Below, piece by piece: positions 29,162 through 58,393 of a DNA stretch of 64,000 nucleotides. The notes below the pieces were generated by a model. That model did no database searches and was not told where the DNA came from. It was given only the letters and a program-made list of their open reading frames with translations. Origin of the DNA: a virus (lineage: Duplodnaviria; Caudoviricetes); the IMG/VR virus record IMGVR_UViG_3300048121_000993, positions 22,369-86,368 of that record, one strand, 5' to 3'. Each line of letters begins with the position of its first letter. The stretch's first letter is position 1. A program made the position numbers and the translations under genes.

Positions 29162-29749
29162 ATGATAATACCAACAGTAATTGAGAGTACAGGAAGAGGC
29201 GAACGTGCATATGACATTTATAGTCGTTTGCTTAAAGATCGTATTGTAATGCTTAATGGAGAAGTTAATGACCATACGGCAAATTTAGTAGTTGCACAAA
29301 TGCTATTTTTGGAATCACAAAATAGTGCAGAAGATATTAATTTTTATATTAATAGTCCAGGTGGTGCAGTTACAGCCGGGCTTGGAATTTATGACACAAT
29401 GCAGTTTATTAAATCTCCAGTAAGCACAATTGTAATGGGTCAAGCATGTAGCATGGGTAGTTTCCTTGCTATGGCAGGTGAGCCGGGCAAGCGTTTAGTA
29501 TTGCCAAACTCACGCACAATGATTCACCAACCAAGTGGCGGCGCAGGCGGACAAGCAACTGATATGCAAATTCAAGTTGATGAGATTCTTAAGATGAAAA
29601 AGAACCTAACACAAATTTATGTTAATCATAATAGTGTAGGTAAAACATATGAAGAATTAGAAGCGGCTATGGAGCGTGATAATTTTATGTCAGCACAAGA
29701 AGCCGTAGATTTTGGTCTTGCTGATAAAGTTGTTGTTCGAAAAACATAA
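29162..29749 (+). CDS. clpP: Clp protease proteolytic subunit
   Basis: [23 protein letters not shown] (Ser), MIHQP (His), RDNFM (Asp). Confidence 0.96.
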
Positions 29750-29784
29750 TATATTTGTAATACTATATTTGTATAAATAATAGT

Positions 29785-30474
29785 ATGAAGATACATGATA
29801 TATTAGAAACAGAGCAAGTACTAGAAGGTCCAAACGATCCTCACATATTTAAAGCAGTATTCCTAGCCGGTGGTCCTGGCTCGGGTAAAAGCTATGTGGC
29901 ACAAAAACTATTAACTGGTGGTGGATTAAAACCTCTTAATAGTGATGATGTTTATGAGTATCTTGCTAAAAAACACAATATTGATTTAAGTGACCCTGAA
30001 GTTGTTGGAAGCAACAAGGGGCAAGAAATCCGTAACCGTGCTAAAGAAATTACTAAAACAAGAGAAGACTTATATCTAGATGGTCGCTTAGGTTTAGTAA
30101 TTGATGGCACAGGCAAGGATGTATCTAAAGTATCGCAAGCCAAAAGACAATTAAGTGAATTAGGTTACGATACTATGATGTTATTTGTTAACACAAGTGA
30201 AGAGGTAGCACAAGAACGCAACGCCGAAAGAGCTAGAACAATACCAGCAGACATGGTAAAGGTGATGTGGCAACGAGTTCAACAAAACATAATGAAATTC
30301 CAACAAGTCTTTGGAGCTGCAAAGTTCCATGTAATAGACAATAGTGGCGGGTTAGAAGACCCCGATCGAAAAGAAAACTTTGATAATGTATACAAAGCAA
30401 TACAACAGTTTCTAAACGATCCACCCACTAAGAGAGCCGCTAAGGCTTGGTTAAGCAAGAATACTAAAACATAG
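29785..30474 (+). CDS. P-loop kinase (zeta-toxin/AAA_33-like)
   Basis: AVFLAGGPGSGKS, VIDGTG, RNAER. Confidence 0.75.
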   Translation: MKIHDILETEQVLEGPNDPHIFKAVFLAGGPGSGKSYVAQKLLTGGGLKPLNSDDVYEYLAKKHNIDLSDPEVVGSNKGQEIRNRAKEITKTREDLYLDGRLGLVIDGTGKDVSKVSQAKRQLSELGYDTMMLFVNTSEEVAQERNAERARTIPADMVKVMWQRVQQNIMKFQQVFGAAKFHVIDNSGGLEDPDRKENFDNVYKAIQQFLNDPPTKRAAKAWLSKNTKT

Positions 30475-30552
30475 TATTTAAGTGACACTGATATCAGCAT
30501 AAATATTAAGCAGTTCAACTATTAACTGTTTTTATATTAGATAGGGAATTTT

Positions 30553-30903
30553 ATGTATACATATAAAGCAAAACTAGTAAGAGTAATAAACGGTGATACT
30601 TTGGACATTGAAATCGATTTAGGTTTCGATATCATTATTAAACAAAGATTAAAGTTATATGGTATTGATACACCTGATAGTAGATCAACAGATGTTGACA
30701 CTAAACAAAAAGGCCTTGACGTTAAGCAACGTTTAATGGACTTATTGAACAAAGAATTTAAAGTAGAAACTATACTTAACAAGCGTGGTAAGTATGGTCG
30801 TATACTTGGAAAGATCTATGTTGTTGTTAACAACAACGAGGTTTGTATAAACGAATTATTAGTAGATGAAGGTCTCGCAATTCGTTATAACATCGGGAAA
30901 TAA
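30553..30903 (+). CDS. thermonuclease-like protein
   Basis: RVINGDT, LYGIDTPD, GKYGRILG. Confidence 0.8.
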   Translation: MYTYKAKLVRVINGDTLDIEIDLGFDIIIKQRLKLYGIDTPDSRSTDVDTKQKGLDVKQRLMDLLNKEFKVETILNKRGKYGRILGKIYVVVNNNEVCINELLVDEGLAIRYNIGK

Positions 30904-30904
30904 T

Positions 30905-32383
30905 ATGAAGTTATTCGGTTATTGGACAGTTTTAGTTGCACTATCAATAAGTGCTGTGGCGGCCTACTACAGTATTGTTGGACTTGTGGCTATCTTTGCT
31001 AGTGCCGTTATACCGATTATTATTATGGGGTCTGTGCTAGAAGTAGGCAAATTGACATCAGCTGTCTGGTTGCACTTGAACTGGAAATCAGCTCCATTTT
31101 TAATTAAAACGTATCTCACTATAGCCGTCATAATGCTTATGTTTATTACAAGCATGGGTATTTTTGGATTTTTAAGTAAAGCACATATTGAACAAACTAG
31201 TGCGGCTAGTGAGAACGTTGCCCAAATTGAACGTATAGAAGAAAGCATAGTAAGAAATAAATTAATTATTACCAAGTCAGAAGATAAGATTATTAAACTT
31301 GAAGCAGTTGATATTTCTTTAGATGATGGAATACAAGAAAAAATACGCATAGAGCAACAAAGAATTGAAAATGCATATACAGGTGTACAACCATCAATAG
31401 ATGAACAGAATGCAATTATAGTTGCAGAAACAGAGGCTAAAGCAAATGCTATAGCACCGTTTGAAACAGAATTAGCTAACATTATTGAAAAACTAGCATT
31501 AATGGATCAGTATTCAATCAATGGTGAGATTGAAAAAATGCAAGGACTATTAGGTGTTAGACAAGATGGTATACTTGGTTGGAATACTAGAGAAGCATTA
31601 AAGAAATTTAAAGAAGATAATAATAAAGCAAAAGGCATGGCAGGATATCAGCTAAATAAAGTTAGAGATGAATTTGATGATTCTGTTATCAAAGATGCTA
31701 GAGCCGAAATTAAAAGAATTAGAATGTTAGCAGAACAACAGATTGCAGACTCTAATGCATTGATTACTAGGTTAAGAGCACAACTTGGACAAGGTCAACA
31801 ACAAGACAATACAGTATTAATTGATACCCAGCGTAATTTAATTGTTGATTCTGAAGCCAAGTTAGAAGAACTTTATACTACAAAATATACACTAGAAGGC
31901 GAAAGCAGAAAACTAGAAGCAGAAGTTGGACCGGTTAAGTATATTGCAGAATTAGTTTATGGACAAGAACCAGGCAGAAATGTCTTGGAAGAAACAGTAA
32001 GATATGTTATACTAATACTTGTATTTGTGTTTGATCCATTAGCAGTTGTACTTGTTCTTGCAGGAATATCTGGAATAGGATTACGCAAATCAACAAAAGG
32101 AACACATGAGCAAAAAGAAGAATCCACAAAGTCTAAAATTAATGAAGATACCAAAAATGTCACCGTCATTAAGAAAGATGTTGTGGGTAATAAAAAAGAC
32201 AACAAGTCTCCCAAAAAACCTGTTGTTCAAAATAAAATACATGAAGAAGATGTAGTGCATACGGATTCAAAAGGTAAAGAATATACAGTTGACAAACGTG
32301 GCAATAGAAAATACCTAATTGAACAATTGCAATACGACTTAAACGACAGATCAAAAAAATTACAACAACAAAAGAAAAGATAA
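30905..32383 (+). CDS. membrane-anchored coiled-coil protein
   Basis: Three N-terminal TM segments, long coiled coil with a short GVRQDGILG peptidoglycan-binding-like motif, C-terminal TM (VFDPLAV). Confidence 0.75.
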   Translation: MKLFGYWTVLVALSISAVAAYYSIVGLVAIFASAVIPIIIMGSVLEVGKLTSAVWLHLNWKSAPFLIKTYLTIAVIMLMFITSMGIFGFLSKAHIEQTSAASENVAQIERIEESIVRNKLIITKSEDKIIKLEAVDISLDDGIQEKIRIEQQRIENAYTGVQPSIDEQNAIIVAETEAKANAIAPFETELANIIEKLALMDQYSINGEIEKMQGLLGVRQDGILGWNTREALKKFKEDNNKAKGMAGYQLNKVRDEFDDSVIKDARAEIKRIRMLAEQQIADSNALITRLRAQLGQGQQQDNTVLIDTQRNLIVDSEAKLEELYTTKYTLEGESRKLEAEVGPVKYIAELVYGQEPGRNVLEETVRYVILILVFVFDPLAVVLVLAGISGIGLRKSTKGTHEQKEESTKSKINEDTKNVTVIKKDVVGNKKDNKSPKKPVVQNKIHEEDVVHTDSKGKEYTVDKRGNRKYLIEQLQYDLNDRSKKLQQQKKR

Positions 32384-32833
32384 ATGAAAATTGATAATAG
32401 CAGTTATACTGTTACCCCTCCAGACCTTTATATGACCGAACATGGAATAAGTATTCTTATTTCGAGTACCAATGCAACGTTTATTACATCAGTAAAGGAA
32501 GTCTTTGAAAAATTTATAGCAACAAGTATTGTTTTTCTTGAACAAAATAAAAAAACTAATTCAGAAACACTACCATGGATGTGGAATGTTTCTAAAACAT
32601 CTGATTTTATGATAGTTGATGTAGATACTTGTGCATGGGAAGATATCATGGCAGGGTTGTTAAAATCAAAAGAAGAAGAAAATACAGTGTTATTTTACAG
32701 CGATAAATACAAGCGAAGAGAAACTGTAAAATTAATAAATGCTACAGGCACTAATTTAGTTGTTAGATCAATAAGCGATATTAACAATTATATAAAACTA
32801 CAAATGAGCCCAGAATATTTTAATGAAGTCTAG
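32384..32833 (+). CDS. hypothetical protein
   Basis: 149 aa ORF. Confidence 0.7.
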   Translation: MKIDNSSYTVTPPDLYMTEHGISILISSTNATFITSVKEVFEKFIATSIVFLEQNKKTNSETLPWMWNVSKTSDFMIVDVDTCAWEDIMAGLLKSKEEENTVLFYSDKYKRRETVKLINATGTNLVVRSISDINNYIKLQMSPEYFNEV

Positions 32834-34046
32834 CAATCTAACCATATGCAATTTTTGTAACAAAGACACAACACAAGTAAAGAAACTACTAGCGGGTGAA
32901 AATGGTACCCACATATGTAGTGATTGTGTTGAGCTATGTTACGGCATAGTTAAAGAACAAAAGGTTGAAGCCATACATAAAAATTATGGTAAAAAATATC
33001 AAGTTCCTACTCCTAGAGAAATACATAATGATTTAGATAAACATGTAATCAGTCAAGACCATGCAAAAAAGACTTTGAGTGTAGCAATATACAATCACTA
33101 TAAAAGAATATCAACAACTACAAAAACAAAATTACAAAAAAGCAATGTACTATTATGCGGTCCTACAGGAACAGGCAAAACATTAATGGCACAAACACTT
33201 GCAGAATTCTTAGGTGTGCCAATGGTTGTAACTGATGCAACAGTTATTACTGAAAGTGGGTATGCAGGCGATGATGCAGAAGTACTAATACACAAATTAT
33301 TCCAAGCATCAAACTATAACAAAGAACGCACAGAACACGGTATTATATATGTTGACGAGATTGACAAAAAAGCAAAGCGTAATGACTATGTTAGTTTAAG
33401 CAGAGATGTATCTGGAGAAGGTGTACAACAGAGCCTTTTAAAGCTCATGGAAGGTACTATAGTACCGGTTCCTAACAAACCGCAACATAACCCGGAGAAG
33501 GTGGATATTGACACCAGTGAGATACTATTTGTAGTAGGTGGTGCCTTTGTTGGTCTACAAGATGTTGTGGTTAACAGGCTCGGTAAAGCAAAGATAGGAT
33601 TTAACGACGGTTTAGACGCCGATGTAGAACAGTGGGAAAAGCACTTACAAACACGAGATTTAGTGAAGTATGGGCTTATACCAGAATTTGTGGGTAGATT
33701 ACCGTCTGTAAACGCCTTAACACCGTTAAATAAGAACGATCTTGTACGAATACTAACTGAACCAATGGGTAGTATAATAGATCAAATAAAAGAGCTTTTT
33801 CTACTTGACAAAATACAAATAGAGTTTACAATAACAGCATTGGAACAAATTGCAGCAATTGCCATTGATGAAGAATTAGGTGCTAGAGGTTTACGTAAAA
33901 TATTAGACCAAGCACTATTAGAAACTCAATATCAATTGCCAGAATTATATGAAAAGGGAGTACGCAAAATTATTATAAATGAACAAGTTATTTCTAGAAA
34001 CGCACAACCACAATTTATTAAAGGTGAAAATGCAGAACAGAAATAA
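32823..34046 (+). CDS. clpX: ATP-dependent Clp protease ATPase ClpX
   Basis: Zn finger CNFC/CSDC, GPTGTGKT, DEIDK, RDVSGEGVQQ, IGF loop, GARGLR. Confidence 0.95.
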   Translation: MKSSNLTICNFCNKDTTQVKKLLAGENGTHICSDCVELCYGIVKEQKVEAIHKNYGKKYQVPTPREIHNDLDKHVISQDHAKKTLSVAIYNHYKRISTTTKTKLQKSNVLLCGPTGTGKTLMAQTLAEFLGVPMVVTDATVITESGYAGDDAEVLIHKLFQASNYNKERTEHGIIYVDEIDKKAKRNDYVSLSRDVSGEGVQQSLLKLMEGTIVPVPNKPQHNPEKVDIDTSEILFVVGGAFVGLQDVVVNRLGKAKIGFNDGLDADVEQWEKHLQTRDLVKYGLIPEFVGRLPSVNALTPLNKNDLVRILTEPMGSIIDQIKELFLLDKIQIEFTITALEQIAAIAIDEELGARGLRKILDQALLETQYQLPELYEKGVRKIIINEQVISRNAQPQFIKGENAEQK

Positions 34047-34560
34047 AGGATATAAACAACGTACAAAAGGCCCATTTGTAATCGCAAATGATCGAATAAG
34101 AGCAAAAGAAGTTAGAGTAAACTTTCCAGACGGTGAAAGCCAAGTGCTGTCTTTAAAGGATGCTTTGAATGAAGCAAAGTCGTTATATTTAGATTTAGTG
34201 TTGATCGCCGAAAAGGCAGACCCACCAGTTTGTAAAATAATTGATCTAAACAAGCATTTGTATTCATTAAAGCAAAAAGAAAAATTGGCAAAGAAAAAGC
34301 AACGAGAAAGCGTTGTAGAGACCAAAGAAGTGCGTATGGGACTAAACATAGATACACATGATTTAGAGACTAAGGCTAAAGCAGCTCGTAAATTTTTGGA
34401 TAAAAATAACAAAGTAACAGTTACAGTTGTTTTGCGTGGTAGAGAACGTGGGCGGCAAGACCTTGCAAGGGAATTGCTAAATACATTTGCTTATCTATTA
34501 GAAGTAGAATACGAGCAAATATCATCACAGAACAATCGAGTATCTGGTAAAATACAATAA
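34030..34560 (+). CDS. infC: translation initiation factor IF-3
   Basis: NDRIRAKEVR, LDLVLI, PPVCKI, KEVRM, RGRE. Confidence 0.92.
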   Translation: MQNRNKGYKQRTKGPFVIANDRIRAKEVRVNFPDGESQVLSLKDALNEAKSLYLDLVLIAEKADPPVCKIIDLNKHLYSLKQKEKLAKKKQRESVVETKEVRMGLNIDTHDLETKAKAARKFLDKNNKVTVTVVLRGRERGRQDLARELLNTFAYLLEVEYEQISSQNNRVSGKIQ

Positions 34561-34568
34561 AGGTAAAC

Positions 34569-34835
34569 ATGGGAAACTATAATAGAAATAATAAACGTGA
34601 CGACAAACCTCAGTTTGGTCCTGGACTATCTGTAGAAGTTAGAAATGGCAATGTAGAACAAGCTATGAGAAAACTTAAGAAGTTAGTTATGAAAACTGGA
34701 CTTATGAATGAAGTACGCGAACGCAGATACTTCGTTAGCAACACTGAAAAAAGACTTAAAGCAGAGGCGGCAGGCCGAGCTAGAAGGCGTAGAGAAATAG
34801 CTAAAGATTCAATCGTAAAGAAAAGACTATACTAA
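34569..34835 (+). CDS. rpsU: ribosomal protein bS21
   Basis: VEVRNGNVEQAMRKLKK...EVRERRYF. Confidence 0.85.
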   Translation: MGNYNRNNKRDDKPQFGPGLSVEVRNGNVEQAMRKLKKLVMKTGLMNEVRERRYFVSNTEKRLKAEAAGRARRRREIAKDSIVKKRLY

Positions 34836-34877
34836 TACGTTATAACTGAATTTGTTCACAAATGTGGATAAATAATA

Positions 34878-34966
34878 ATGTGTACAACAGGACTGATTCC
34901 TACCGTATACATAGAACGCCGAAAGGGTTCTAAATAATCTTGCTTAATATAAGGAGAAAAGATATG
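34878..34966 (+). promoter_or_regulatory. ROSE-like RNA thermometer leader
   Basis: Hairpins followed by TCTTGCT able to pair with the AAGGAG SD of hsp20. Confidence 0.6.
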
Positions 34967-35386
34967 ACTAGATTAACAACACTAAATCTTCCAGATTTTT
35001 ATAAGACTACAATAGGATTTGATAGTATGTTTGATGAAATGCAAAATGCATTCGCAACAAACACAGGCGGTTACCCACCTTACAACATTGTAAAGGAAAG
35101 TGACACTAGCTATTCAATTAGCCTAGCAGTAGCAGGTTTTAATAAAGACGAGATAAAAATCGAACAAGACGGTAATACACTTTCAATTAATGCTGAAAAG
35201 AAACCAATCGAGGAAGAGATTGAATATTTACACAAAGGCATTGGAACTAGAAACTTTACAAAAGAATTTAGTTTAGCTGATTATGTAGAAGTAACATCGT
35301 CAAAGCTAGATAACGGTATCTTAGTAGTTACATTGGAACAAAATATTCCAGACGAAAAGAAACCACGAACTATTAAAATTGACTAA
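34964..35386 (+). CDS. small heat shock protein (Hsp20/IbpA family)
   Basis: YPPYNI, LAVAGF, YLHKGI..RNF, NGIL, KPRTIKI. Confidence 0.93.
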   Translation: MTRLTTLNLPDFYKTTIGFDSMFDEMQNAFATNTGGYPPYNIVKESDTSYSISLAVAGFNKDEIKIEQDGNTLSINAEKKPIEEEIEYLHKGIGTRNFTKEFSLADYVEVTSSKLDNGILVVTLEQNIPDEKKPRTIKID

Positions 35387-35400
35387 TATAAGGTAAAAAA

Positions 35401-35703
35401 ATGACTCAAGCATCATCAAGTAGCGTAGCAGAAATAACTAAATTAAAACCACCATCACGGTACAATGTTGTATTGTTAAATGATGACTCTACGCCACAGG
35501 AGTTTGTAGTAAATGTTTTACTGACAATTTATAATAGGTCAACGGAACAAGCAAACTCCGTGATGCTTGAAGTCCACGAAAAGGGCCGAGGCATTGCAGG
35601 CACATACAGTTACGAAGTAGCTGAACAAAAATGTGTGGAAACTATCACTGACGCACGGAAAAACCAATTTCCATTAGATGTCACAATAGAAAAAGCAGAA
35701 TAA
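35401..35703 (+). CDS. clpS: Clp protease adaptor ClpS
   Basis: YNVVLLNDDSTPQEFVV, MLEVHEKG, EVAEQK, FPL. Confidence 0.92.
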   Translation: MTQASSSSVAEITKLKPPSRYNVVLLNDDSTPQEFVVNVLLTIYNRSTEQANSVMLEVHEKGRGIAGTYSYEVAEQKCVETITDARKNQFPLDVTIEKAE

Positions 35704-42021: not shown

Positions 42022-42432
42022 ATGGCATATAGCGAAAAAGTGCTAGACCATTACAATAATCCAAGAAATGTAGGTAAGTTCGACCCCAAGGAAGATAATA
42101 TCGGAACTGGAATGGTAGGCGCACCTGCATGTGGTGATGTAATGCGTTTACAAATTAAAGTAACAGAAGATGGCATTATTGAAGATGCAAAATTCAAAAC
42201 ATACGGTTGTGGAAGTGCAATTGCTAGTTCAAGTATGGTAACAACTATGCTTAAAGGTATGACACTAGATCAAGCACAAGAGATTAAAAACACAACAATA
42301 GTAGAAGAACTTGCATTGCCACCAGTTAAGATACACTGTAGCGTATTGGCAGAAGATGCCATTAAAGCCGCAGTTAGAGATTATTCTGGAAAAAAACAAC
42401 AAATAAACGCAAAACCGGTTGACATAACTTAA
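42022..42432 (+). CDS. iscU: Fe-S cluster scaffold protein
   Basis: GAPACGD, GCGSAIASS, LPPVKIHCS. Confidence 0.96.
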   Translation: MAYSEKVLDHYNNPRNVGKFDPKEDNIGTGMVGAPACGDVMRLQIKVTEDGIIEDAKFKTYGCGSAIASSSMVTTMLKGMTLDQAQEIKNTTIVEELALPPVKIHCSVLAEDAIKAAVRDYSGKKQQINAKPVDIT

Positions 42433-42454
42433 TTTTGTGTTATCATAAATAATA

Positions 42455-42741
42455 CGCAATGTTGAAATTTACTCAACGCTGATTCAGGACTCCGGGGCGG
42501 TACCGGACAACTCCACCATAAACACATTGTTACTAGTAGTTCATAGTGTGTTTTTGATGGGGTTGAAATAGGTTCGACTGGGTAGCTAATAGGTAAAGGG
42601 AGTTGCCGGGATGTAAGCGCCGTTACCGCGAACAAACTTTATAATTGCAAATGACAATTATTCGCCAGAAATGGCATTAGCAGCCTAATTTAGGTATGTA
42701 GGGGTTTTTGCAAGTTGAGCCTGGCAACAGAATCAACTTGC
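42455..42741 (+). ncRNA. ssrA: two-piece (circularly permuted) tmRNA
   Basis: Acceptor piece ends CAACTCCACCA (42518) with T-loop GGCGGTA; intervening hairpin; coding piece starts GGGGTTGAAATAGGTTCGAC (42559); tag 42647..42688 ANDNYSPEMALAA*; terminal CCTGGCAACAG hairpin. Confidence 0.92.
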
Positions 42742-42795
42742 TACTATAATGCAATTAGCGTTAAAGTATGTAATAATAAAAATCAAGGAAATATT

Positions 42796-43380
42796 ATGAG
42801 AAATATTATAATGACGGCGGCTCTAATGGTCGCTTTAACTGGAACGGCACAAGCCGAGAACTATGACAATACAACAGTCTCAATGGCTGCCGAATCGGCA
42901 ACTATGGGAGTTTCATTGTCAACTAACGATACATCTAGATCAATTGATGTGTACACAATGGGAAGATCATTAGATTTTGGAGCAGGAGTAAGTGATAACG
43001 GAACTAACCGTGATTATAGTGTTTCTGTTGGAAAAACTTTAGATGTTCTTAATGTAGGACCAGTTGGTACTTACCTAAGTGGTGAAGCTGAATACAATTG
43101 GGGAGATACATTTACTAAATCAGAAATGCATTTCACTCCAACTGTAGGTGGTAAAATGGACCTAGGTCTTATTGCCCCATATGCTGAAGTTGACTATATG
43201 TTAAAATCAGTAGAAGGTGACTTTACAAGTATTGATAAAGCAACACCAAACTTTACTATCGGTACGAAAGTTGCGTTAGGTACATCTACTTCATTAAATG
43301 CCAAGTTGACTAATTCACTTAACAGTGATTGGAAATCAACTGACAAAGAAGTTAGTGTAGGACTTACAGTTAGTTTTTAA
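42796..43380 (+). CDS. outer-membrane beta-barrel protein
   Basis: Signal peptide (AQA), alternating beta strands, C-terminal VGLTVSF. Confidence 0.75.
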   Translation: MRNIIMTAALMVALTGTAQAENYDNTTVSMAAESATMGVSLSTNDTSRSIDVYTMGRSLDFGAGVSDNGTNRDYSVSVGKTLDVLNVGPVGTYLSGEAEYNWGDTFTKSEMHFTPTVGGKMDLGLIAPYAEVDYMLKSVEGDFTSIDKATPNFTIGTKVALGTSTSLNAKLTNSLNSDWKSTDKEVSVGLTVSF

Positions 43381-45810: not shown

Positions 45811-45887
45811 CCGCTCTTAGCTCAGCTGGATAGAGCAACTGCCTTCTAAGCAGTAGGTCACAGGTTCGAATCCTGTAGAGCGGGCCA
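45811..45887 (+). tRNA. tRNA-Arg(UCU)
   Basis: Loop CT-TCT-AA, CCA. Confidence 0.95.
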
Positions 45888-45918
45888 ACACAACCGAAGT
45901 AACAGAAAGAAGATTAAA

Positions 45919-46209
45919 ATGACAAGTTTTATAATTGACTGGTATAATGTAATAATGGATAGTGAAAAGAATCCATTAAGTAATATCAAAGATTTAAGAG
46001 TACGCCATATGGTGATGCAAATATTAGCATGGATGTGGTGCATAGTGTTTACTGCAATGACAGGTACTTGGATGTATCTAGGTGCTAACATACTAATACA
46101 CACATTACTATTAGGTGCAGTATGTTTAACAGTAGCAACATTTGAAGCAGCTAAACGCAAACCACAAATATTTTATACATTGCGTGGTGACGGCGGCGAA
46201 CACGAATAA
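45919..46209 (+). CDS. small membrane protein
   Basis: NPL..I.D..VRHMVMQILAWMWCIVF; two TM segments. Confidence 0.75.
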   Translation: MTSFIIDWYNVIMDSEKNPLSNIKDLRVRHMVMQILAWMWCIVFTAMTGTWMYLGANILIHTLLLGAVCLTVATFEAAKRKPQIFYTLRGDGGEHE

Positions 46210-46217
46210 GAATTAGT

Positions 46218-46301
46218 GCTCGCATGATGGAATGGTAGACATAACAGACTTAAAATCTGTGGCCGTAAGGCGTCCCGGTTCGAGTCCGGGTGCGAGTACC
46301 A
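46218..46301 (+). tRNA. tRNA-Leu(UAA)
   Basis: Loop CT-TAA-AA, long variable arm, CCA. Confidence 0.93.
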
Positions 46302-46312
46302 AAGAATAGTGT

Positions 46313-46387
46313 GGGACTGTAGCTTAGTGGTAGAGCAAGACGCTCATAACGTCCAGGTCGTTGGTTCGATCCCAACCAGTCCCACCA
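46313..46387 (+). tRNA. tRNA with CAU anticodon (Ile2 or elongator Met)
   Basis: Loop CT-CAT-AA; paired 1-72, so not an initiator; CCA. Confidence 0.9.
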
Positions 46388-46405
46388 TGAAAGAAGGAAC
46401 TATGT

Positions 46406-46630
46406 ATGTTTACAGTAGAAGAAGAATTCGATGAAAGCATTATAACAGTAATGGATACTAAAGAAAAGTTTCAAGATGTTAAAGTGTATTTCCAAGAAGA
46501 TGTTATTTACATTACACAATATAACGAAGAGTTTGACACTCATGATGTAGTGAAAGTATCAACTGAAATGTGGGAAATGTTAATTGAAGGATACAATCGT
46601 ACACAAGGAACATACATAATTACTAAATAA
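46406..46630 (+). CDS. hypothetical protein
   Basis: AAGGA RBS; lies between tRNAs. Confidence 0.7.
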   Translation: MFTVEEEFDESIITVMDTKEKFQDVKVYFQEDVIYITQYNEEFDTHDVVKVSTEMWEMLIEGYNRTQGTYIITK

Positions 46631-46718
46631 GGACAGTTGGCTGAGTGGTCGAAAGCACCGGTTTACTAAACCGACGAAGGGCAACCTTCCTAGGGTTCGA
46701 ATCCCTAACTGTCCGCCA
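46631..46718 (+). tRNA. tRNA-Ser(ACU)
   Basis: Long variable arm, G73, loop TT-ACT-AA, CCA. Confidence 0.88.
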
Positions 46719-46729
46719 GTTACTGGTAA

Positions 46730-46804
46730 TGGAACGTAGCATAATGGTAATGCACCGCTTTTTGGTAGCGTAGAGTATAGGTTCGAGTCCTATCGTTCCA
46801 GCCA
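46730..46804 (+). tRNA. tRNA-Gln(UUG)
   Basis: U1-A72, loop TT-TTG-GT, CCA. Confidence 0.9.
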
Positions 46805-46811
46805 CAGTTAT

Positions 46812-46885
46812 AGGGGTGTAGTGAAATGGTATCACGGCGGATTCCAAATCCGCAAGTAGGAGTTCGATTCTCTTCACCTTTGCCA
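46812..46885 (+). tRNA. tRNA-Trp(CCA)
   Basis: Loop TT-CCA-AA, G73, CCA. Confidence 0.92.
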
Positions 46886-48038: not shown

Positions 48039-49238
48039 GTGAGGACAATGGACAATAATTTACACAGTAAAAGTTGGTGTCCACTCCCATTTAACGCTAT
48101 TAGCTTTCATCCTACAGGAGCATTAACTCGTTGCATGATGAGTAATATTCCAATGGGTGAAAGTTTTGATAGTGTACAAATGCAACAGCTACGCCAAGAT
48201 ATGCTTGACGGTAAGTGGGATAAAGAAGGTTGCATTAGTTGTTGGAAAAAAGAAGAACAAGGCAACATAAGCCAAAGACAAAAATGGCTACAAAGAAACC
48301 CACAAGATTTTAAAAGTCCTGAAGGATATAATAATCCACAATTAACAGGCAATCCAATAAATCATATGTTTGTAAATTATAGCAACATATGTAATTTTAA
48401 ATGTAGAATGTGTGGACCTAATTACAGTAATAGTCTTATTCCAGAACACAAACATTTACATTCTATTGGATTAGGAAAACAAGTAAAAGTAGAGTCTATT
48501 AAAAATAGAAACTTTATAAATGATTACTTAAAAAATAACCCAAACAGCTTAGATAATGTAAACAGTATATGGATAACAGGCGGTGAGCCTCTTATGGATG
48601 ATAATTGTTATGAACTTATTGATATTTTAGATGACTATGATAAATCATGGGAAACTGATATGGTTATTACAACCAACGGTTCTAAGGTTGATTTAGATAA
48701 ATTACAAAAGTTTGATAACTTGAAGTTCTTTGAACTTGATTTAAGTTTAGATACTCCGGGCAGTATGTTTGAATATATGCGTAGTGCAGGCATATTCACA
48801 TGGGAGCAAATGAAAAAACTAATAGATGATTTGGCACACTTTAAAAAAGAAAACAGTAGTTGGTTTCATATGTGTTTTAACGCAAGTATACAAGCATACA
48901 ACTTTGATACAGTATTAGAATTTGACAAAATATGCAGAGATGCAAATGCACTAAATAATACTAGGATGTTAATATTTCCAGAACACTTTAGATTAGATGT
49001 ACTACCACTGGAAATGAGACAAGCAGAATTAAGAAAAATAAAAGACTACACAGTTGCAGCATACGATCCTAGGTTCCAACGAACATTCACAGATATATGC
49101 AATAGTATGGCTAAGCCACAAGCAAGCAATGAAATAGTAGACAAGTTTAAACAAATAACAAAAGCACAAGATACATACAGAGGTATGCACATAACAGATT
49201 ACCACACACAATTAGCAGAATTTATATATGACAGATAA
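48039..49238 (+). CDS. radical SAM protein with N-terminal twitch-like domain
   Basis: WCPLPF..RC, CISC, CNFKCRMC, TGGEP, TTNG. Confidence 0.9.
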   Translation: MRTMDNNLHSKSWCPLPFNAISFHPTGALTRCMMSNIPMGESFDSVQMQQLRQDMLDGKWDKEGCISCWKKEEQGNISQRQKWLQRNPQDFKSPEGYNNPQLTGNPINHMFVNYSNICNFKCRMCGPNYSNSLIPEHKHLHSIGLGKQVKVESIKNRNFINDYLKNNPNSLDNVNSIWITGGEPLMDDNCYELIDILDDYDKSWETDMVITTNGSKVDLDKLQKFDNLKFFELDLSLDTPGSMFEYMRSAGIFTWEQMKKLIDDLAHFKKENSSWFHMCFNASIQAYNFDTVLEFDKICRDANALNNTRMLIFPEHFRLDVLPLEMRQAELRKIKDYTVAAYDPRFQRTFTDICNSMAKPQASNEIVDKFKQITKAQDTYRGMHITDYHTQLAEFIYDR

Positions 49239-50520
49239 AAAATTAATACCAGAGCGTTGGGTTGTTCATCACGATAATGCAGGTACAACAGTAAAAGAAA
49301 ATGATAAATGGAAAAACTTGCATAGCCCAAGTTGGTGTCCAGTTCCCTTTAATACAATAAGTTGGCATCCATCTGGAATAGTAAGTCGTTGCATGATGAG
49401 TGACGATCCAATGGGAACTTCACATGAAAGTGATGTAATGCAAGAACTACGAAAAAACATGCTTGCTGGTAAGTGGGATACACATGGATGTTTAAACTGT
49501 TTACAAAAAGAACGCAATGGTTTTAAAAGCCAGCGTATGAATTGGTTACATCATGACTTCAGAGAAAGACTTGGAGATCCTGAACCATATACTAATCCAA
49601 AAATAACTGGAAATAAGATAAGTCATTTATTTGTGAACTTTTCAAATGTATGTAATTTTAAATGTAGAATGTGCAATGCAAACTTTAGTAACAGTTTAAT
49701 TCCAGAAAACAAACATATGTACTCATTGTTTCCTGAAGAATATCATAAGGTTCCTTTACAACAAACAAAAAACTTTAATAATATTAATGAATACTTAGAA
49801 GCAACTCCAGAAGTATTAGATGGAATAACAAGCATATGGATGACTGGTGGTGAACCATTTATGGATGATAGTCCATACAAACTAATGGAGCTTATTGAAG
49901 AATATGGGCATCCAGAAAAGATTAAGATGGTTATTACTACTAATGGGTCTAAATTAGATTTTAACAAATTAAGTAAATTTAATAAACTAAAAAGTCTTAT
50001 ACTAGATATTAGTATAGATGCAGTAGGACCTATGTTTGAATACATGCGTAGTAATGGAGTATTTACATGGAGTCAAATGGAAGCAACATGTGGACAGTTG
50101 AAAAATTTTAAAGAAACTAACAAAGAGTGGTTTAAATTTCAAATTAATAGCAGTTACCAAATATTTAATTATGATAATACTTGGGACTTTTTAGAGTTTA
50201 TTGATGATCATGAATGTGATAGTAATATGAGATTGGTTGTGTATCCTGAACATTTGAGAGCAGGAAATTTACCACAAAGTTTTAAAAACGAAGCATATGC
50301 TATGTGTGATAAAATAGAATTGCGATACGGAAACAAAGATCAACATCAGATTAAAATGTTAGACGATATAAGACAAGCGTTAAGTGTAGAAGAAAAACAC
50401 TATAAATCATTTAAACGAGTTGTAACAGAACAAGACAAGTTTAGAGGAAAGTACTTATATGAATATAATGAGAAACTTGGTGAACTGCTTTATGGAACTA
50501 AACAACAATGCCTATTTTAA
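49228..50520 (+). CDS. radical SAM protein, tandem paralog of 48039
   Basis: WCPVPF..RC, CLNC, CNFKCRMC, TGGEP. Confidence 0.9.
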   Translation: MTDKKLIPERWVVHHDNAGTTVKENDKWKNLHSPSWCPVPFNTISWHPSGIVSRCMMSDDPMGTSHESDVMQELRKNMLAGKWDTHGCLNCLQKERNGFKSQRMNWLHHDFRERLGDPEPYTNPKITGNKISHLFVNFSNVCNFKCRMCNANFSNSLIPENKHMYSLFPEEYHKVPLQQTKNFNNINEYLEATPEVLDGITSIWMTGGEPFMDDSPYKLMELIEEYGHPEKIKMVITTNGSKLDFNKLSKFNKLKSLILDISIDAVGPMFEYMRSNGVFTWSQMEATCGQLKNFKETNKEWFKFQINSSYQIFNYDNTWDFLEFIDDHECDSNMRLVVYPEHLRAGNLPQSFKNEAYAMCDKIELRYGNKDQHQIKMLDDIRQALSVEEKHYKSFKRVVTEQDKFRGKYLYEYNEKLGELLYGTKQQCLF

Positions 50521-53422: not shown

Positions 53423-53570
53423 GTGTTCTCCTATTTGGATGCTTGGGCCCTTTACTGCCTGCTCATATGTATTTAACACTTTGAGAATTAAGTTAAGTTA
53501 GCATAAAAAGAATAAAAGTTGACACTACGAACTAACTGTCATAAATAAGTATATATTAAAGGAATTCACA

Positions 53571-54098
53571 ATGGATCAAAATTATATTTTAAACAACCTA
53601 AGAGCAAACACTAGTCGAGATAGTGCGTTAGAAACACTAATGGACTTTGAGCGTGTAATGGATAATGCCAACATTTATGCATATAAAAACTGGATGGAAG
53701 GCGAAATCGTCGAAGGTCCACATATTGATAGATATTGGGTAACAGTTACATTAATGTATTATAAGAATCAAATGCCAGATCCTGAAGGTGCAATGCGTTT
53801 AACAAGAAATGGTTGTAAAGTATATTTTGCAGAAGAAGAATACATTACGGCTGCTAAACTAAGAAGTCCAGACGACAGTGAAGGACAAGACGGAGCAGAC
53901 GGTAGAAGACCAGGGCAAACTCGTGCTAAAAGAGTTATTAAGCCTATTTGGTTAGTAACAATAGTAATGCCTAGAAAATATATGAATGATGTAGAAGCAG
54001 CTAAATTGCGTGTTGATGATCAAGGTATTGATAGTAATGCAGTAGAGCAAGCATACACAGATGAAATATCTGCAGCAGACGAAGGATTAGACTTATGA
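53571..54098 (+). CDS. hypothetical protein
   Basis: 175 aa; late-type promoter upstream. Confidence 0.75.
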   Translation: MDQNYILNNLRANTSRDSALETLMDFERVMDNANIYAYKNWMEGEIVEGPHIDRYWVTVTLMYYKNQMPDPEGAMRLTRNGCKVYFAEEEYITAAKLRSPDDSEGQDGADGRRPGQTRAKRVIKPIWLVTIVMPRKYMNDVEAAKLRVDDQGIDSNAVEQAYTDEISAADEGLDL

Positions 54099-54562
54099 GC
54101 ATACAACACAATGATTTAATAGATTTAGTACAATCAACATTTAGTGTAGATCAATACAAAAGTAAAATAGGCGATGATAAGAATGTTGTAGTATTAGCAT
54201 TTGAAGTTAAAGATGCCGATCCAGCAAAAGATTTAAGTCTGTTTATTGAAACAGGACATGACTGTATTGATGTAGATGTATCGCCGGGTCCAGACAAAGA
54301 CGGAAATTACAAAGTCTTTGTTGAATTACAACGAAACAGTAAGTTATTTGATTCAATTGATAACATACTAAAAGATATCACTCGTGTAGACGAATCAGCA
54401 AACAGCTTTATGTTTAATGCATACAAAAGCGATATGCCTTCAAATTGGAATAGACAAAACTTTGAAAGTAGTGTATACTCAAGTAGTTACGATTATGAAA
54501 TGGCCACTAACCCAAAAGCTCAAGAAATATCGGAACGCATTAAATTTTTAAACAAGTATTAA
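54095..54562 (+). CDS. hypothetical protein
   Basis: 155 aa, coupled. Confidence 0.75.
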   Translation: MSIQHNDLIDLVQSTFSVDQYKSKIGDDKNVVVLAFEVKDADPAKDLSLFIETGHDCIDVDVSPGPDKDGNYKVFVELQRNSKLFDSIDNILKDITRVDESANSFMFNAYKSDMPSNWNRQNFESSVYSSSYDYEMATNPKAQEISERIKFLNKY

Positions 54563-54566
54563 TATT

Positions 54567-55040
54567 ATGATATTAGGAAAACTTAAATTACTTCTTATAA
54601 TGACTGCTGTACTCGGTGCAGTAGGATTAGGTGCGTGGAAGTATTACACATACACACAAGAACAAATTCGTGTATATGCCACAAACGCCGCAACTGCCGA
54701 ACAAGCCGCAGAAGCTTCACAGGCCGCATTTGTATCAGTACAAAAAGATTTAGCAGAAGTACAAAAACAATTTAATGAAGTAAGCAAAGAATTTGCATCA
54801 GCACAATCACGTGTTGATACACTTGAAGAAAAACTAAGCGAACATGACTTAGGTCAACTTGCACAAGCAAGACCTGGATTAGTTGAAAAAATAATTGACA
54901 AAGCCAGTAACAACGTAGCAAGATGTATAGAGATACTAAGCGGTTCACCATTAACGGAGAAAGAAATCAATGTTACAAAAAAATCAAAAGCCAATACTGA
55001 ATGTCCTGGCATTGCTAATCCTAACTACGTTCCTAAGTAG
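54567..55040 (+). CDS. i-spanin (Rz)-like
   Basis: N-terminal TM, periplasmic coiled coil, C-terminal Cys. Confidence 0.6.
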   Translation: MILGKLKLLLIMTAVLGAVGLGAWKYYTYTQEQIRVYATNAATAEQAAEASQAAFVSVQKDLAEVQKQFNEVSKEFASAQSRVDTLEEKLSEHDLGQLAQARPGLVEKIIDKASNNVARCIEILSGSPLTEKEINVTKKSKANTECPGIANPNYVPK

Positions 55041-55419
55041 TTGTGCAACTACCCCACAGGTAATTTCATATAAAGCAGAGCCTATTGAAAAGCCAGCACT
55101 AGTATTACCTGCAACGGGTACACTAGAATTAAGAGATGCTGATTGGGATATTATTACACCAGATGCATTGGGTCAAGTGTTTGATAAGTTACAAGCAGAT
55201 GGCGAACCTGTAGTTATATATGCATTAACAACAGAAGGCTATGAGCAACTTTCATTAAACATGGCAGATATACTTAAATTGTTATCACAACAAAAAGCAA
55301 TTATTGAAGCATACAAAGAATACTACGAACAAACAGAAAAAAATATAGATGATTACAACAGCAAAAACAAAGAAGTTCCTGTTGAAAAAACAGGAATACT
55401 CGATAAATTTCTTAATTAA
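54970..55419 (+). CDS. o-spanin (Rz1)-like lipoprotein
   Basis: Lipobox LSSC; overlaps the end of the i-spanin gene. Confidence 0.6.
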   Translation: MLQKNQKPILNVLALLILTTFLSSCATTPQVISYKAEPIEKPALVLPATGTLELRDADWDIITPDALGQVFDKLQADGEPVVIYALTTEGYEQLSLNMADILKLLSQQKAIIEAYKEYYEQTEKNIDDYNSKNKEVPVEKTGILDKFLN

Positions 55420-55464
55420 AAACACTAACGTTTAAGGCTCTTCATAATGTCAATAAATACTACG

Positions 55465-56145
55465 ATGAAGAAAATGAACAATCCTTGGTTTATACTCGGC
55501 CTCGAACCAGGTGCTACATTTAAAGAGGTCAAATTAGCATACAAAAAATTAGCTCTAAAAAATCACCCAGACAAGGGCGGTACTATCGCAGACTGGTTGG
55601 CTATCAGTGATGCTTACGAAGAAATTCAAAAAAAGAATCATGTTCCTATATTAAAATCAACAGATGTGCAAATGATAGATCTAGCATTAACAATCGAACA
55701 ACAAATTAGTGGTGTAAATGATTATGTTAAAATTGATGAAGAAGAAGACTTATATTTAAAAGTAAATATTCCAGCAGGCGTACTAGCTGGAGATAAGTTT
55801 AAAATAACTGATAAGCGAAAAAAATATATAATAAATGTGAAAGAAAAGGCAAATAAAGTCTTTACAAGATCGGGAAATAATATTATAATGTATAAGACAT
55901 TGGATGTTATTGATGTAATGAAACTAAATTCATTTATGATAATGACACCAACAGGAGAACGCTGTGAAATTGATATTCCAATAGATACAGTGACAGGAAG
56001 TATAATAGTGCTAAAGGGACATGGGTTATACAATAGAAAGAGTAAAAGAAAAGGTAATTTAAGGATACATATAAAGGTGAAGATACCTTACTTAAATAGT
56101 ACTAATATAGAAGAATTTATAACGAGGTTAAGGACAAATGACTGA
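55465..56145 (+). CDS. J-domain co-chaperone (CbpA/DnaJ type II-like)
   Basis: AYKKLALKNHPDKGG plus DnaJ C-terminal motifs (IPAG, LKGHGL, GNL). Confidence 0.85.
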   Translation: MKKMNNPWFILGLEPGATFKEVKLAYKKLALKNHPDKGGTIADWLAISDAYEEIQKKNHVPILKSTDVQMIDLALTIEQQISGVNDYVKIDEEEDLYLKVNIPAGVLAGDKFKITDKRKKYIINVKEKANKVFTRSGNNIIMYKTLDVIDVMKLNSFMIMTPTGERCEIDIPIDTVTGSIIVLKGHGLYNRKSKRKGNLRIHIKVKIPYLNSTNIEEFITRLRTND

Positions 56146-58393
56146 TATTGAAAAAATTGTAATAACTGCTATCAATTTAGCAAAGAAATTAAAACACGAA
56201 TATGTAACTATTGAACATTTAGCAGCAGTTATTTTAGATGACCCACAAGTGCAAGCAATGTGTTTTGAAATAAATGCCGATTTTGAAACTTTGCAAATTG
56301 CATTAGTAGAGTACCTGGAAAAACATTGTAACGAATTAGTTAAGAATGATAACGAGGAACCAAATCCTTTTAAAACACAAATGCTTGAAAGAGTATTTAA
56401 TAGAGCATTAACACAAGCATTGTTTCAAGGTAAAAAACATCTTAATCAATTAGACTTAGTATTAAGTATATTAGGCGAAGAAAATAGTATAGCGGCACAG
56501 TACGCAGAGCAGATGGGTCTTAACAAAAACAAAGTTATAGGTTGGATGCAAGAAACACAAGCACTAGAAAATGAACAAATTTTTGGACCTTCAGATAGTT
56601 TGGGAGATCCTCGTAGACCTCAAGGTGCAATGACACCTAGAGATGTATTAGCACAGTTTTGTACTAACATGAATGAAGCATATGATGAGTATGATGACTT
56701 AATTGGTCGTAGACACGAATTAAAAGAATTAGTACAAGCAGTAGCACGAAAGAAAAAGTCTAATGCTATTTTAACAGGCGGAAGCGGTGTTGGTAAAACA
56801 GCAGTTGTACAAGGACTAGCAAAACTTATTGTAGAAGGACATGTTCCTGATATTATTAAAGATAAGGTTGTGTGGGAATTAGATATGACTAAATTAGTTG
56901 CCGGTACAAAATACAGAGGTGACTTTGAAGAACGCATGAAGCAATTAGGCGAAGCATTAATACAAGAGCCTAATATTATTTTGTTTGTAGATGAGATACA
57001 CACAATCATTGGTGCAGGTAGTACAAATGGTACTATGGATGCAGGTAATATGTTAAAGCCAGCATTAAGCAATGGTAAACTAAAAGTTATTGGCGCAACT
57101 ACAGATGAAGAGTATAGAAAAGTATTTGAAAAAGAAACAGCACTAGCACGTAGATTTACAAAAGTTGTTGTATCAGAACCTAACTTAATAGACGCAAAAG
57201 AAGTTGTTTATAACTCGCTAATATCATATGAAGCATTTCACGATGTTACTATTAGACCAGAAGCAGCAGATCTTTCAGTTGAATTAAGTAATCAATATAT
57301 CTTTAACAAGAAACTTCCAGATAAAGCATTTGATATTATTGATAGAGCATGTGCATTTAATAGAATATTACCACCCGAAGAACGCTTAGACATATTGGGC
57401 GAAGATGAAATTAAAGCAGAGGTGGCAAGACTAACTGGTATTCCAAAAGAACATTTAGGAAAAGCAGAAGACGAATCAACAAACAAAAAGCACTCAGAAG
57501 TTAGAGAGTTTTTAGAAAGCACAGTATTCGGTCAACAAGCGGCAATTGATTGCGTAGTTGACAGTATTACAGTTAGCATGGCAGGACTTAAAGATCCTAT
57601 TAAACCTATTGCAAGTTATTTGCTTACAGGTCCAACAGGTGTTGGTAAAACAGAACTTGCTAAACGTTTAGCACAGTCAATGAGCATGAAACTATGTAGA
57701 TACGATATGGCAGAATATCAAGAACGCCACACAGTATCAAAACTAATTGGTTCACCTCCAGGATATGTAGGACACGGTGATGGTAAAGCAGGTGATGGTT
57801 TACTTATTAACCAATTAGAAGATAATCCTAATTGTGTGTTATTATTGGACGAAGTAGAAAAAGCACACCCAGATTTAATGAGCGTATTGTTAAGTTTATT
57901 AGATGAAGGTACAATTACATCAAGTACAGGTAAAGTAGTAAGTGCCAAGAACGCTATTGTTATTATGACAAGTAACCTTGGAGCCAGAGACGCGGCAGTT
58001 AAAAGCATTGGCTTTAATGAAGAAACATATAATGCAAAAGCAGTAGACGATGCAGTAAACAATTACTTTGCACCAGAGTTCCGTAACAGACTAGATGGTG
58101 TTGTTAAGTTTAATGCACTAACAAGAAACGACATGAAGCGTATTGTTATTAAGTTCTTAGGTGAACTTGAAACATATGTAGAAGGCAGACACATTGTAAT
58201 TAATTGGGGTCCTGAACTATTAGCAATGCTAGAAGATAAAGGATACGACCCGGCAATGGGTGCAAGGCCACTTGCAAGGTTAATTAATGAAAGTGTTAAA
58301 CTTCCATTAGCAAAACACTTGCTAGATCACAACAAAGATTTTACATTGGATCTAGACTGGAAAAAAGACGCACTAACTATTAATGGAAAATAA
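56138..58393 (+). CDS. clpA: ATP-dependent Clp protease ATPase ClpA
   Basis: HEYVTIEHL N-domain, two AAA modules (GVGKT twice), AGTKYRGDFEER, IGF loop; no ClpB middle domain. Confidence 0.93.
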   Translation: MTDIEKIVITAINLAKKLKHEYVTIEHLAAVILDDPQVQAMCFEINADFETLQIALVEYLEKHCNELVKNDNEEPNPFKTQMLERVFNRALTQALFQGKKHLNQLDLVLSILGEENSIAAQYAEQMGLNKNKVIGWMQETQALENEQIFGPSDSLGDPRRPQGAMTPRDVLAQFCTNMNEAYDEYDDLIGRRHELKELVQAVARKKKSNAILTGGSGVGKTAVVQGLAKLIVEGHVPDIIKDKVVWELDMTKLVAGTKYRGDFEERMKQLGEALIQEPNIILFVDEIHTIIGAGSTNGTMDAGNMLKPALSNGKLKVIGATTDEEYRKVFEKETALARRFTKVVVSEPNLIDAKEVVYNSLISYEAFHDVTIRPEAADLSVELSNQYIFNKKLPDKAFDIIDRACAFNRILPPEERLDILGEDEIKAEVARLTGIPKEHLGKAEDESTNKKHSEVREFLESTVFGQQAAIDCVVDSITVSMAGLKDPIKPIASYLLTGPTGVGKTELAKRLAQSMSMKLCRYDMAEYQERHTVSKLIGSPPGYVGHGDGKAGDGLLINQLEDNPNCVLLLDEVEKAHPDLMSVLLSLLDEGTITSSTGKVVSAKNAIVIMTSNLGARDAAVKSIGFNEETYNAKAVDDAVNNYFAPEFRNRLDGVVKFNALTRNDMKRIVIKFLGELETYVEGRHIVINWGPELLAMLEDKGYDPAMGARPLARLINESVKLPLAKHLLDHNKDFTLDLDWKKDALTINGK

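Follow-up and report, generated by a model that had tools for sequence, protein, structure and literature searches.

Clp, chaperone and translation-factor genes with a two-piece tmRNA on a marine phage contig

The window analysed here is a stretch of 64,000 nucleotides, bases 22369-86368 of the 86,368-base IMG/VR virus record IMGVR_UViG_3300048121_000993. Over some 29 kb it encodes ClpP, ClpX, ClpA and ClpS together with initiation factor 3 (IF3), ribosomal protein bS21, two chaperones and a two-piece transfer-messenger RNA (tmRNA) (Table 1), a set that is likely to be inherited within a phage lineage and to work beside host factors. The record has no end repeats, and its CheckV completeness of 24% implies a genome of ~360 kb. 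The source is a phage, not a cell. The upstream 22 kb of the record encode a large terminase (TerL; phrog_36964, E 1.2e-131), a gp32-like single-stranded DNA-binding protein, a UvsX-like recombinase, a helicase, a primase and a DnaB-like helicase, and the window itself adds a class I ribonucleotide reductase and DNA ligases. A simple gene call yields 132 open reading frames (ORFs), nearly all on the same strand, and ARAGORN finds 11 tRNAs in the window.

Table 1. Features of the proteostasis and translation gene set, in window coordinates
Feature	Coordinates	Strand	Evidence
clpP, 195 aa	29162-29749	+	Pfam CLP_protease, 265.3 bits, E 3.6e-79; triad kept; no propeptide
clpX, 407 aa	32823-34046	+	Pfam zf-C4_ClpX and AAA_2
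infC (IF3)	33979-34560	+	Pfam IF3_N and IF3_C; equivalog TIGR00168, 142 > 60
rpsU (bS21)	34569-34835	+	Pfam Ribosomal_S21, aa 21-73; equivalog TIGR00030, 45.2 > 28.95
Small heat-shock protein, Hsp20 family	34940-35386	+	Pfam HSP20, 68.4 bits
clpS, 100 aa	35401-35703	+	Pfam ClpS, 95 bits (> 23)
iscU, Fe-S scaffold	42022-42432	+	TIGR01999, 219 > 192
Two-piece (permuted) alpha-type tmRNA	42398-42779	+	ARAGORN, Rfam, sequence, covariation
Promoter-like TTGACA-N16-TATCAT	42419-42446	+	Read from sequence, just upstream of tmRNA
J-domain protein	55447-56145	+	Pfam DnaJ, 33.9 bits, and DnaJ_C, 62.4 bits
clpA-like two-ring AAA+ unfoldase, 751 aa	56138-58393	+	Alignment to E. coli ClpA 1ksf, aa 10-747, E 3.6e-163

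Components of the set

Alignment to solved ClpP places the catalytic Ser in GQACSMG, the His in MIHQP and the Asp in ERDNF. ClpX passes two NCBIfam equivalog models (NF003745, 482.8 > 359; TIGR00382, 438.9 > 370.75), and its C4 zinc finger, Walker A and B motifs and sensor-II align to solved ClpX. The two-ring unfoldase is matched best, and over its full length, by a ClpA model, despite scores below the equivalog cut-offs (TIGR02639, 741.9 < 993.15; NF008263, 599.4 < 1350). It comprises an N-domain and two AAA+ modules and lacks the middle domain typical of ClpB; the alignment to E. coli ClpA shows both Walker A/B pairs, with GGSGVGKT and KYRGDFE in D1 and GPTGVGKT and GYVG in D2. The IGF loop lies at residues 258-260 of ClpX (33594-33602) and at residues 624-626 of ClpA (58007-58015), where it aligns to the IGL of E. 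coli. ClpS misses the NCBIfam equivalog cut-offs (best 101.2 < 149) and matches its family over the full length, with Caulobacter ClpS (3dnj) as the best solved match. The NDD and His of the N-degron pocket align to the Caulobacter protein and are conserved clade-wide. The gatekeeper position, which we take to correspond to the gatekeeper methionine of the pocket, Caulobacter M53, is occupied by Gln in the window and its closest relatives and by Met in more distant clade members. Judged by this alignment, the Gln might alter N-degron specificity.

Of the remaining proteins, infC as listed overlaps the 3' end of clpX, and its true start may be further downstream. The bS21 carries an N-terminal extension of ~20 residues, and the Hsp20 protein misses the IbpA equivalog (119.3 < 212). 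The J-domain protein has HPD at residues 40-42, scores 79.3 against a DnaJ equivalog cut-off of 377.2, and shows no zinc-finger domain in Pfam; it is a J-protein, not a canonical DnaJ.

The tmRNA is called by ARAGORN as permuted at 42426-42779 and is matched by two Rfam models, RF04321 (124.8 bits, gathering 47) and RF01849 (116.9 bits, gathering 50). Its acceptor piece, upstream of the coding piece, ends in CCA at 42518; an intervening segment of 40 nt leads to the coding piece, whose first letters are GGGG at 42559. The tag frame (42647-42688) consists of the resume codon, ANDNYSPEMALAA and a stop, so that the tag ends hydrophobic-Ala-Ala. Positions about 272-325 of the alpha model are missing. 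Among 27 bacterial tags sampled, 25 start with ANDN and 10 end in ALAA, a comparison that makes the phage tag one of alpha type. No glutamine riboswitch reaches the Rfam gathering score in the window. The motif TATAAATA, presumably the T4 late-promoter consensus, is depleted in the window (2 exact matches, 13.4 expected). Of 15 aligned relatives, 9 have an exact copy immediately before the tmRNA; at that place the window and the remaining five read CATAAATA. In one relative (L125:19525-20057) the intervening segment is ~200 nt longer and looks like a small ORF, from ATG to stop.

The neighbours of the tmRNA are recurrent too. The iscU gene directly upstream keeps this pairing in many relatives, and IscU is 78% identical even in a distant 335 kb contig described below. 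Directly 3' of the tmRNA (42796-43380, +) lies a gene for a 194-residue protein with a signal peptide, a beta-rich body and a C-terminal Phe, resembling a small outer-membrane barrel. It has zero Pfam or PHROG matches. Its place after the tmRNA is kept in 14 distinct relatives, the 335 kb contig (26% identity) among them. Its signal peptide, beta-rich character and C-terminal Phe led us to reject it as a substitute for SmpB.

An earlier note on this DNA had described the intact ClpP triad, the clpX-infC-rpsU-hsp20-clpS run at 32823-35703, the IGF loop in both ATPases, the J-protein-clpA pair and the two-piece tmRNA. Pfam places the run and the pair where the note had them, and the structural alignments, ARAGORN and the two Rfam models agree with the rest.

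Relatives in culture and in metagenomes

Megablast of 8.6 kb against phage records returns zero matches, which leaves the phage without a close cultured relative by DNA comparison. At the protein level (tblastn, 50,697 phage records), the TerL of PA5oct-like Pseudomonas jumbo phages comes first (55%), followed by those of Sinorhizobium phage Phosso (51%), Agrobacterium phage Atu_ph07 (49%), Vibrio phage 2.275.O (47%) and 121Q/PBECO4-type coliphages (45%). ClpP matches 1668 records, ClpA 195, ClpX 181 and ClpS only 21. The PA5oct-like phages, Phosso and Atu_ph07 are among the matches for all four, and are the best ones for ClpA and ClpP; a few short unannotated records outscore them for ClpX and ClpS.

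Gene order is shared with these phages to a considerable extent. Paride (OR805295), of the PA5oct group (Arenbergviridae, Wroclawvirus), has clpX-S21-x-QueD-Hsp20-clpS, DNA ligase, clpP, PhoH on the opposite strand, two virion genes and a 229-residue J-like gene abutting clpA, much as in the window. It differs from the window in that IF3 is not annotated beside clpX, there is no tmRNA, the host is gammaproteobacterial and the ClpX loop is different again. Atu_ph07 (NC_042013, 490 kb) and Phosso (PV764938) share with the window a clpX followed directly by infC, an Hsp20-tdk-clpS run and a dnaJ-(pdf)-clpA run. Atu_ph07 also has clpP and, unlike the window, no tmRNA; it is listed without one in Table 1 of PMC11242549 (papers given here by PMC number are cited in excerpt). 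The alpha tmRNA model matches one of the four cultured relatives searched, namely Phosso and not Paride, Atu_ph07 or the Vibrio phage, and in these four the one-piece model RF00023 gives tRNA-sized matches only, none above the cut-off. In the Phosso tmRNA the two pieces are separated by ~410 nt, and the tag is ANDNVSTKVALAA. This tmRNA was found by Rfam; ARAGORN reports nothing at the locus, probably because of the long intervening segment.

AP-J-162 is described with six Clp ORFs, a clpX adjoining IF-3, and Hsp20, DnaJ, S21 and one tmRNA (PMC11242549, in excerpt). Between them, Phosso and AP-J-162 resemble the window in ClpP, ClpX, ClpA, ClpS, clpX-infC, S21, the small heat-shock protein, a DnaJ-like gene beside clpA and a permuted alpha-type tmRNA. 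They differ in being soil phages of rhizobia of about 470 kb, with 47% GC in AP-J-162, and in a module that spans a longer stretch; identity to the window proteins is 43% for ClpX, 42% for ClpA and 66% for ClpP.

Methylophilales phage Melnitz and similar phages, T4-like and roughly 140-150 kb in size, offer a further comparison. Like the window, Melnitz and the pelagimyophages are marine phages with a permuted alpha-lineage ssrA, for which the authors propose a role in ribosome maintenance or in tagging proteins for degradation (PMC9004378, in excerpt). Unlike the window tmRNA, the Melnitz ssrA is accompanied by a glutamine riboswitch, and the excerpted text has 0 occurrences of 'Clp', the window having a Clp set. 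The survey in the same paper counts a tmRNA in 402 of 18,146 phage genomes; 53 are two-piece, of which 50 belong to marine or aquatic phages.

Among uncultured viruses, at least 600 IMG/VR stretches hold a TerL relative, the best 80 at 69-98% identity. Relatives of ClpS occur at 57 loci (38 clusters at 98% identity). Counting for each gene only loci with enough flank, and including near-duplicate contigs, these loci also contain ClpX (41/44), ClpP (31/36), IF3 (42/50), S21 (46/53), Hsp20 (46/55) and IMP dehydrogenase (48/52). A permuted tmRNA lies no more than 10 kb downstream of ClpS at 20 of 32 loci, and the order is always the same. Whole records were searched for the 24 of the 57 that reach at least 40 kb, none of them above 60% complete: 14 have an alpha tmRNA, 12 a ClpA (11 at 68% identity or more) and 10 have ClpS, tmRNA and ClpA together. 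The full set had been called unusual in the earlier note; both the set and its order prove routine in related phages, cultured and uncultured, an outcome that the note itself had named as a refutation, and are in print for AP-J-162 in the excerpted part of PMC11242549.

A degenerate tag-coding pattern was also scanned over ~185,000 species genomes. It matched only two contigs of metagenome-assembled genomes (MAGs), PBPT01000016.1 (335,231 bp) and PALK01000009.1 (29,883 bp), whose MAGs are labelled Neomarinimicrobiota and Rickettsiales. Both contigs carry homologues of the window phage's genes (TerL, prohead protease, ClpA, tmRNA, ribonucleotide reductase) and are probably phage contigs mis-binned into MAGs. 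The larger occurs twice in its assembly (C57 and C77), with identical TerL matches. This 335 kb relative encodes TerL (55%), a prohead protease, a tmRNA with the tag ANDNYAPEMAMAA, S21, Hsp20, ClpS and a J-like gene beside clpA; ClpP, ClpX and IF3 were not found in its 335,231 bases. Because Atu_ph07 and Paride have the Clp genes without a tmRNA, and this contig a tmRNA without ClpXP, tmRNA and ClpXP come apart both ways. The scan identified no host. The alpha-type tmRNA suggests an alphaproteobacterial origin; the Melnitz case shows that tmRNA type and host class can disagree (PMC9004378, in excerpt).

The phage is common in seawater data. Seawater and marine metagenome DNA runs contain 66-96% of the words sampled from a 10 kb stretch, and six metatranscriptome runs hold 31-42% of them (20 holding rows from 17 studies). 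The S21-hsp20-clpS genes and the tmRNA are covered by contigs from four RNA runs, each of a different study; strand, ends and level cannot be read from such contigs, and the libraries may contain DNA.

Dependence on the host and reading of the tag

The earlier note had observed that smpB is missing from the window and proposed looking for smpB and sspB in the rest of the genome. SmpB (PF01668) has no match in the whole 86 kb record, ~24% of a genome, in any of 4 cultured relatives, two of them complete genomes (Atu_ph07 and Phosso), or in any of 24 IMG/VR relative records; the same search matched in 10 bacterial genomes each time. It is on no phage contig of the two MAGs. In the assembly that holds the 335 kb relative, the only SmpB match lies on another contig (C35), and the 3.4 kb fetched from there contain no homologues of the phage genes. 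SspB is likewise found in 0/5 records. The set is not the self-contained one that the earlier note proposed, and depends on the host at least for SmpB. Huge phages are reported with tmRNAs, SmpB, IF3 and S21 (PMC7162821, in excerpt).

Three elements of E. coli ClpX are described as critical in ssrA binding: Y153 and V154 of pore-1, T199 and V202 of pore-2, and R228 and H230 of the RKH loop, with R228A and V154F each raising the Michaelis constant at least 50-fold (PMC7652416, in excerpt). In the window ClpX, pore-1 reads GYAG rather than GYVG (33258-33269), pore-2 reads SRDV, a T199S change with the Val kept, and the RKH loop is shortened to NKPQHNPEK (about 33474-33500). Among 31 bacterial ClpX sequences GYVG occurs in 31, GGRKHP in 30 and TRDVSGEG in 29; among 28 from phages, GYAG occurs in 22, SRDVSGEG in 24, and a loop three residues shorter and devoid of Arg-Lys-His in 22. 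The ClpX of Phosso and that of Atu_ph07 retain GGRKNP, and Phosso also keeps GYVG. Since all three elements are altered, tag reading by the phage ClpX is doubtful on the strength of these alignments. ClpA, whose pore loops are canonical, unlike those of ClpX, would be the better candidate; any reader of Ala-Ala ends, host or phage, could serve.

A quick maximum-likelihood tree of ClpX, in which the bacterial sequences come from one class and two MAGs, parts the 28 phage from the 31 bacterial sequences by a single branch whose support in the Shimodaira-Hasegawa-like approximate likelihood ratio test (90) is not decisive. Within it, a marine clade of 23 has support of 100 and a long stem. Tree and loops together speak for old vertical inheritance with changed specificity, as far as sequence comparison can be trusted here, and they count against regarding ClpX as an established tag reader. 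Of the proposal that the phage encodes the tag writer and all its readers, the tmRNA thus stands, as do Clp machines whose ATPase, docking and catalytic motifs are intact, and tag reading by the phage ClpX is put in doubt. Set against the E. coli and Caulobacter systems, the window has in common an ANDN...ALAA-type tag, the ClpP triad, the ClpX zinc finger, the AAA+ motifs, the IGF/IGL loops and the ClpS pocket; it departs from them in the missing SmpB and SspB, in all three ClpX elements, in the Gln for Met of ClpS and in the trimmed tmRNA.

The earlier note drew these parts together as a coupled tag-and-destroy circuit, in which phage ClpXP and ClpAP are dedicated readers of the phage tag, clear stalled ribosomes and redirect proteolysis. 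Writer and candidate readers do occur together, in the window and in 10 of 24 relative records, and the ClpA pore loops and IGF docking loop are intact. We recovered 20 distinct phage tmRNA sequences, and all 20 tags keep the hydrophobic-Ala-Ala end; 16 of them end in PEMA[LMI]AA, a motif found in 0/27 bacterial tags sampled and specific to the lineage. Yet the ClpX changes fall at positions whose E. coli equivalents are critical for ssrA binding (PMC7652416, in excerpt), and the His inside the shortened loop is not constant in relatives that have a tmRNA. A PEMA-type tag, ClpA and ClpS are kept in the 335 kb relative without ClpP or ClpX; in Atu_ph07 and Paride the four Clp genes are complete and a tmRNA is missing. 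Moreover, the 29 kb span is not a single unit, its tmRNA and Clp genes being 7-13 kb apart with unrelated genes between, and neither SmpB nor SspB was found. We regard a dedicated circuit of this kind as unlikely.

A narrower version would have the phage tag and its reader form a private, co-evolved pair, the lineage-specific ...Y-x-P-E-M-A-[LMI]-A-A tag being read differently by a re-specified ClpX or by ClpA; alternatively, ClpX may be blind to Ala-Ala tags and free for other substrates. Speculation of this order has a low probability in our estimate, and were a private pair real, the phage could tell its own tagged products from host-tagged ones. Our literature searches turned up no test of whether a phage tmRNA and phage Clp proteases are functionally linked; the ssrA and clp genes treated in the PhageExpressionAtlas preprint are those of the host, not phage copies.

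The genes interspersed in the span comprise a Zeta/AAA_33-type kinase, a nuclease, a GATase, a cytidylyltransferase, an IMP dehydrogenase/GMP reductase, a lipase, a peroxiredoxin, IscU, seven tRNAs, an endolysin, two radical-SAM proteins, PhoH (on the other strand), two virion proteins and an Rz-like spanin pair. The kinase, a Zeta_toxin/AAA_33-type P-loop protein, lies just after clpP (29785-30474, +), with one of the two exact TATAAATA copies ahead of it at 29772-29779. The seven-tRNA cluster (45811-46885, ARAGORN) includes a long-arm tRNA-Ser with the unusual anticodon ACT (46631-46718, +). The two radical-SAM proteins are adjacent and of ~400 residues (48039-50520, +); a third, smaller one lies outside the span at 17756-18451 (+). 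Also outside, at 27543-28061 (+), is a stand-alone HD_4/RelA-SpoT hydrolase-domain protein of 172 residues, a candidate small alarmone (ppGpp) hydrolase.

Origin of the parts and interpretation

Could the tmRNA be a passive remnant without a role in infection, for instance a copy left by integration at an attachment site or a gene lately acquired from a host? Prophages commonly integrate at ssrA, the gene for tmRNA, and fragments of it are seen in prophages (PMC9004378, in excerpt). The window copy, in contrast, is full length, with both pieces, the resume codon and the stop, and its position is kept in relatives whose ClpS is merely 55-72% identical. Structural selection acts on the tmRNA: of the 60 pairs in an RNAalifold consensus of 15 phage tmRNAs, 24 show compensatory changes, in the T-arm, the acceptor stem and a P2-like helix. 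A G.U pair of the acceptor stem (U-G, columns 95/251) is invariant in 15/15, and the neighbouring pairs covary; we take it to correspond to the G3.U70 alanine identity element. With the alpha model the phage copies reach 91-132 bits, against at least 158 bits in 75 of 81 cellular genomes sampled from one bacterial class (one of them flagged unpublished); the lower phage scores indicate an RNA that is old and has diverged within phages. Finally, the tag pattern matched only the two contigs with phage genes in ~185,000 species genomes. A remnant is accordingly a very unlikely explanation.

The same can be said, with slightly more force, of the idea that ClpP acts as a prohead (head-maturation) protease only, which the earlier note had named as a possible refutation. 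Some records annotate homologues in PA5oct-like phages and Atu_ph07 as 'head maturation protease', and the ClpP-related head-maturation model gives 115.3 bits. That score is under the cut-off of 120, while the cellular ClpP subfamily model NF001368 is passed (301.9 > 249), and the equivalog TIGR00493 is missed by little (285.5 < 308.6). Solved ClpP aligns end to end, over residues 2-192 (E 2.6e-74). All 4 of the large relatives (Paride, Atu_ph07, Phosso and the 335 kb contig) encode a distinct prohead protease of the T4 gp21 type (Peptidase_S77); none was found in the record's own 86 kb fragment. Two partner ATPases with IGF docking loops are encoded, and the neighbours of clpP are replication and metabolic genes, not head genes. 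An exclusive role in the prohead is thus extremely improbable.

That the contig is cellular, as the earlier note had allowed, or a chimera whose co-occurring genes are an assembly artefact has a negligible chance of being right: relatives of the phage do turn up binned into bacterial MAGs, but here TerL, the gp32-like protein, UvsX, the primase, the DnaB-like helicase, the reductase and the ligase share a contig of uniform GC content (0.33-0.36 across the window) with the Clp and tmRNA genes, the gene order is identical in independently assembled records and in cultured phage genomes, and the words of the 10 kb stretch recur in seawater DNA runs of many studies.

The reading we prefer is that the window carries an inherited proteostasis and translation gene set of a widespread marine jumbo myophage lineage, with PA5oct, Atu_ph07, AP-J-162 and Phosso as kin, whose parts most likely work beside host factors and form no closed circuit. 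We hold this to be likely. The genes are present and intact and are conserved in order across the clade, the tmRNA is structurally constrained, and SmpB and SspB are absent wherever they were searched for. Several points weigh on the other side. The IMG/VR records are all fragments (at most 60% complete), so SmpB could sit in unsampled sequence of the phage, and the complete genomes without SmpB, Atu_ph07 and Phosso, are distant relatives. Retention of tmRNA and Clp genes together in 10 of the 24 fragmentary records, and a lineage-specific tag, would also be expected of a coupled writer and reader. In addition, the RNA-library contigs over the genes cannot separate transcription from DNA carry-over.

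From this gene content we infer every activity, all timing and the identity of the tag-reading protease. Under the preferred reading of an inherited set working beside host factors, the phage tmRNA would be transcribed and processed to two pieces, charged with alanine by the host alanyl-tRNA synthetase and delivered with host SmpB and EF-Tu. It would add ribosome-rescue capacity in infection, and truncated products would receive a tag of alpha type with Ala-Ala at its end. Phage ClpXP and ClpAP-ClpS, with the small heat-shock protein and the J-protein (host DnaK as its partner), may remodel or degrade proteins over a long, protein-heavy infection, and IF3 and bS21 may bias initiation.

Only the ClpX loop changes and the lineage-specific tag go beyond prior description; the rest is a known, conserved jumbo-phage module. 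What the analysis adds to the biology of this group is that an abundant ocean lineage of jumbo phages keeps, as a stable part of its gene content, a Clp/chaperone/IF3/bS21 block and a tmRNA of its own. The gene set is found also in cultured Sinorhizobium phages, where its role could be tested, and the remodelling of ClpX, together with a tag motif unseen in the sampled bacteria, makes the tag-reading protease a concrete biochemical question.

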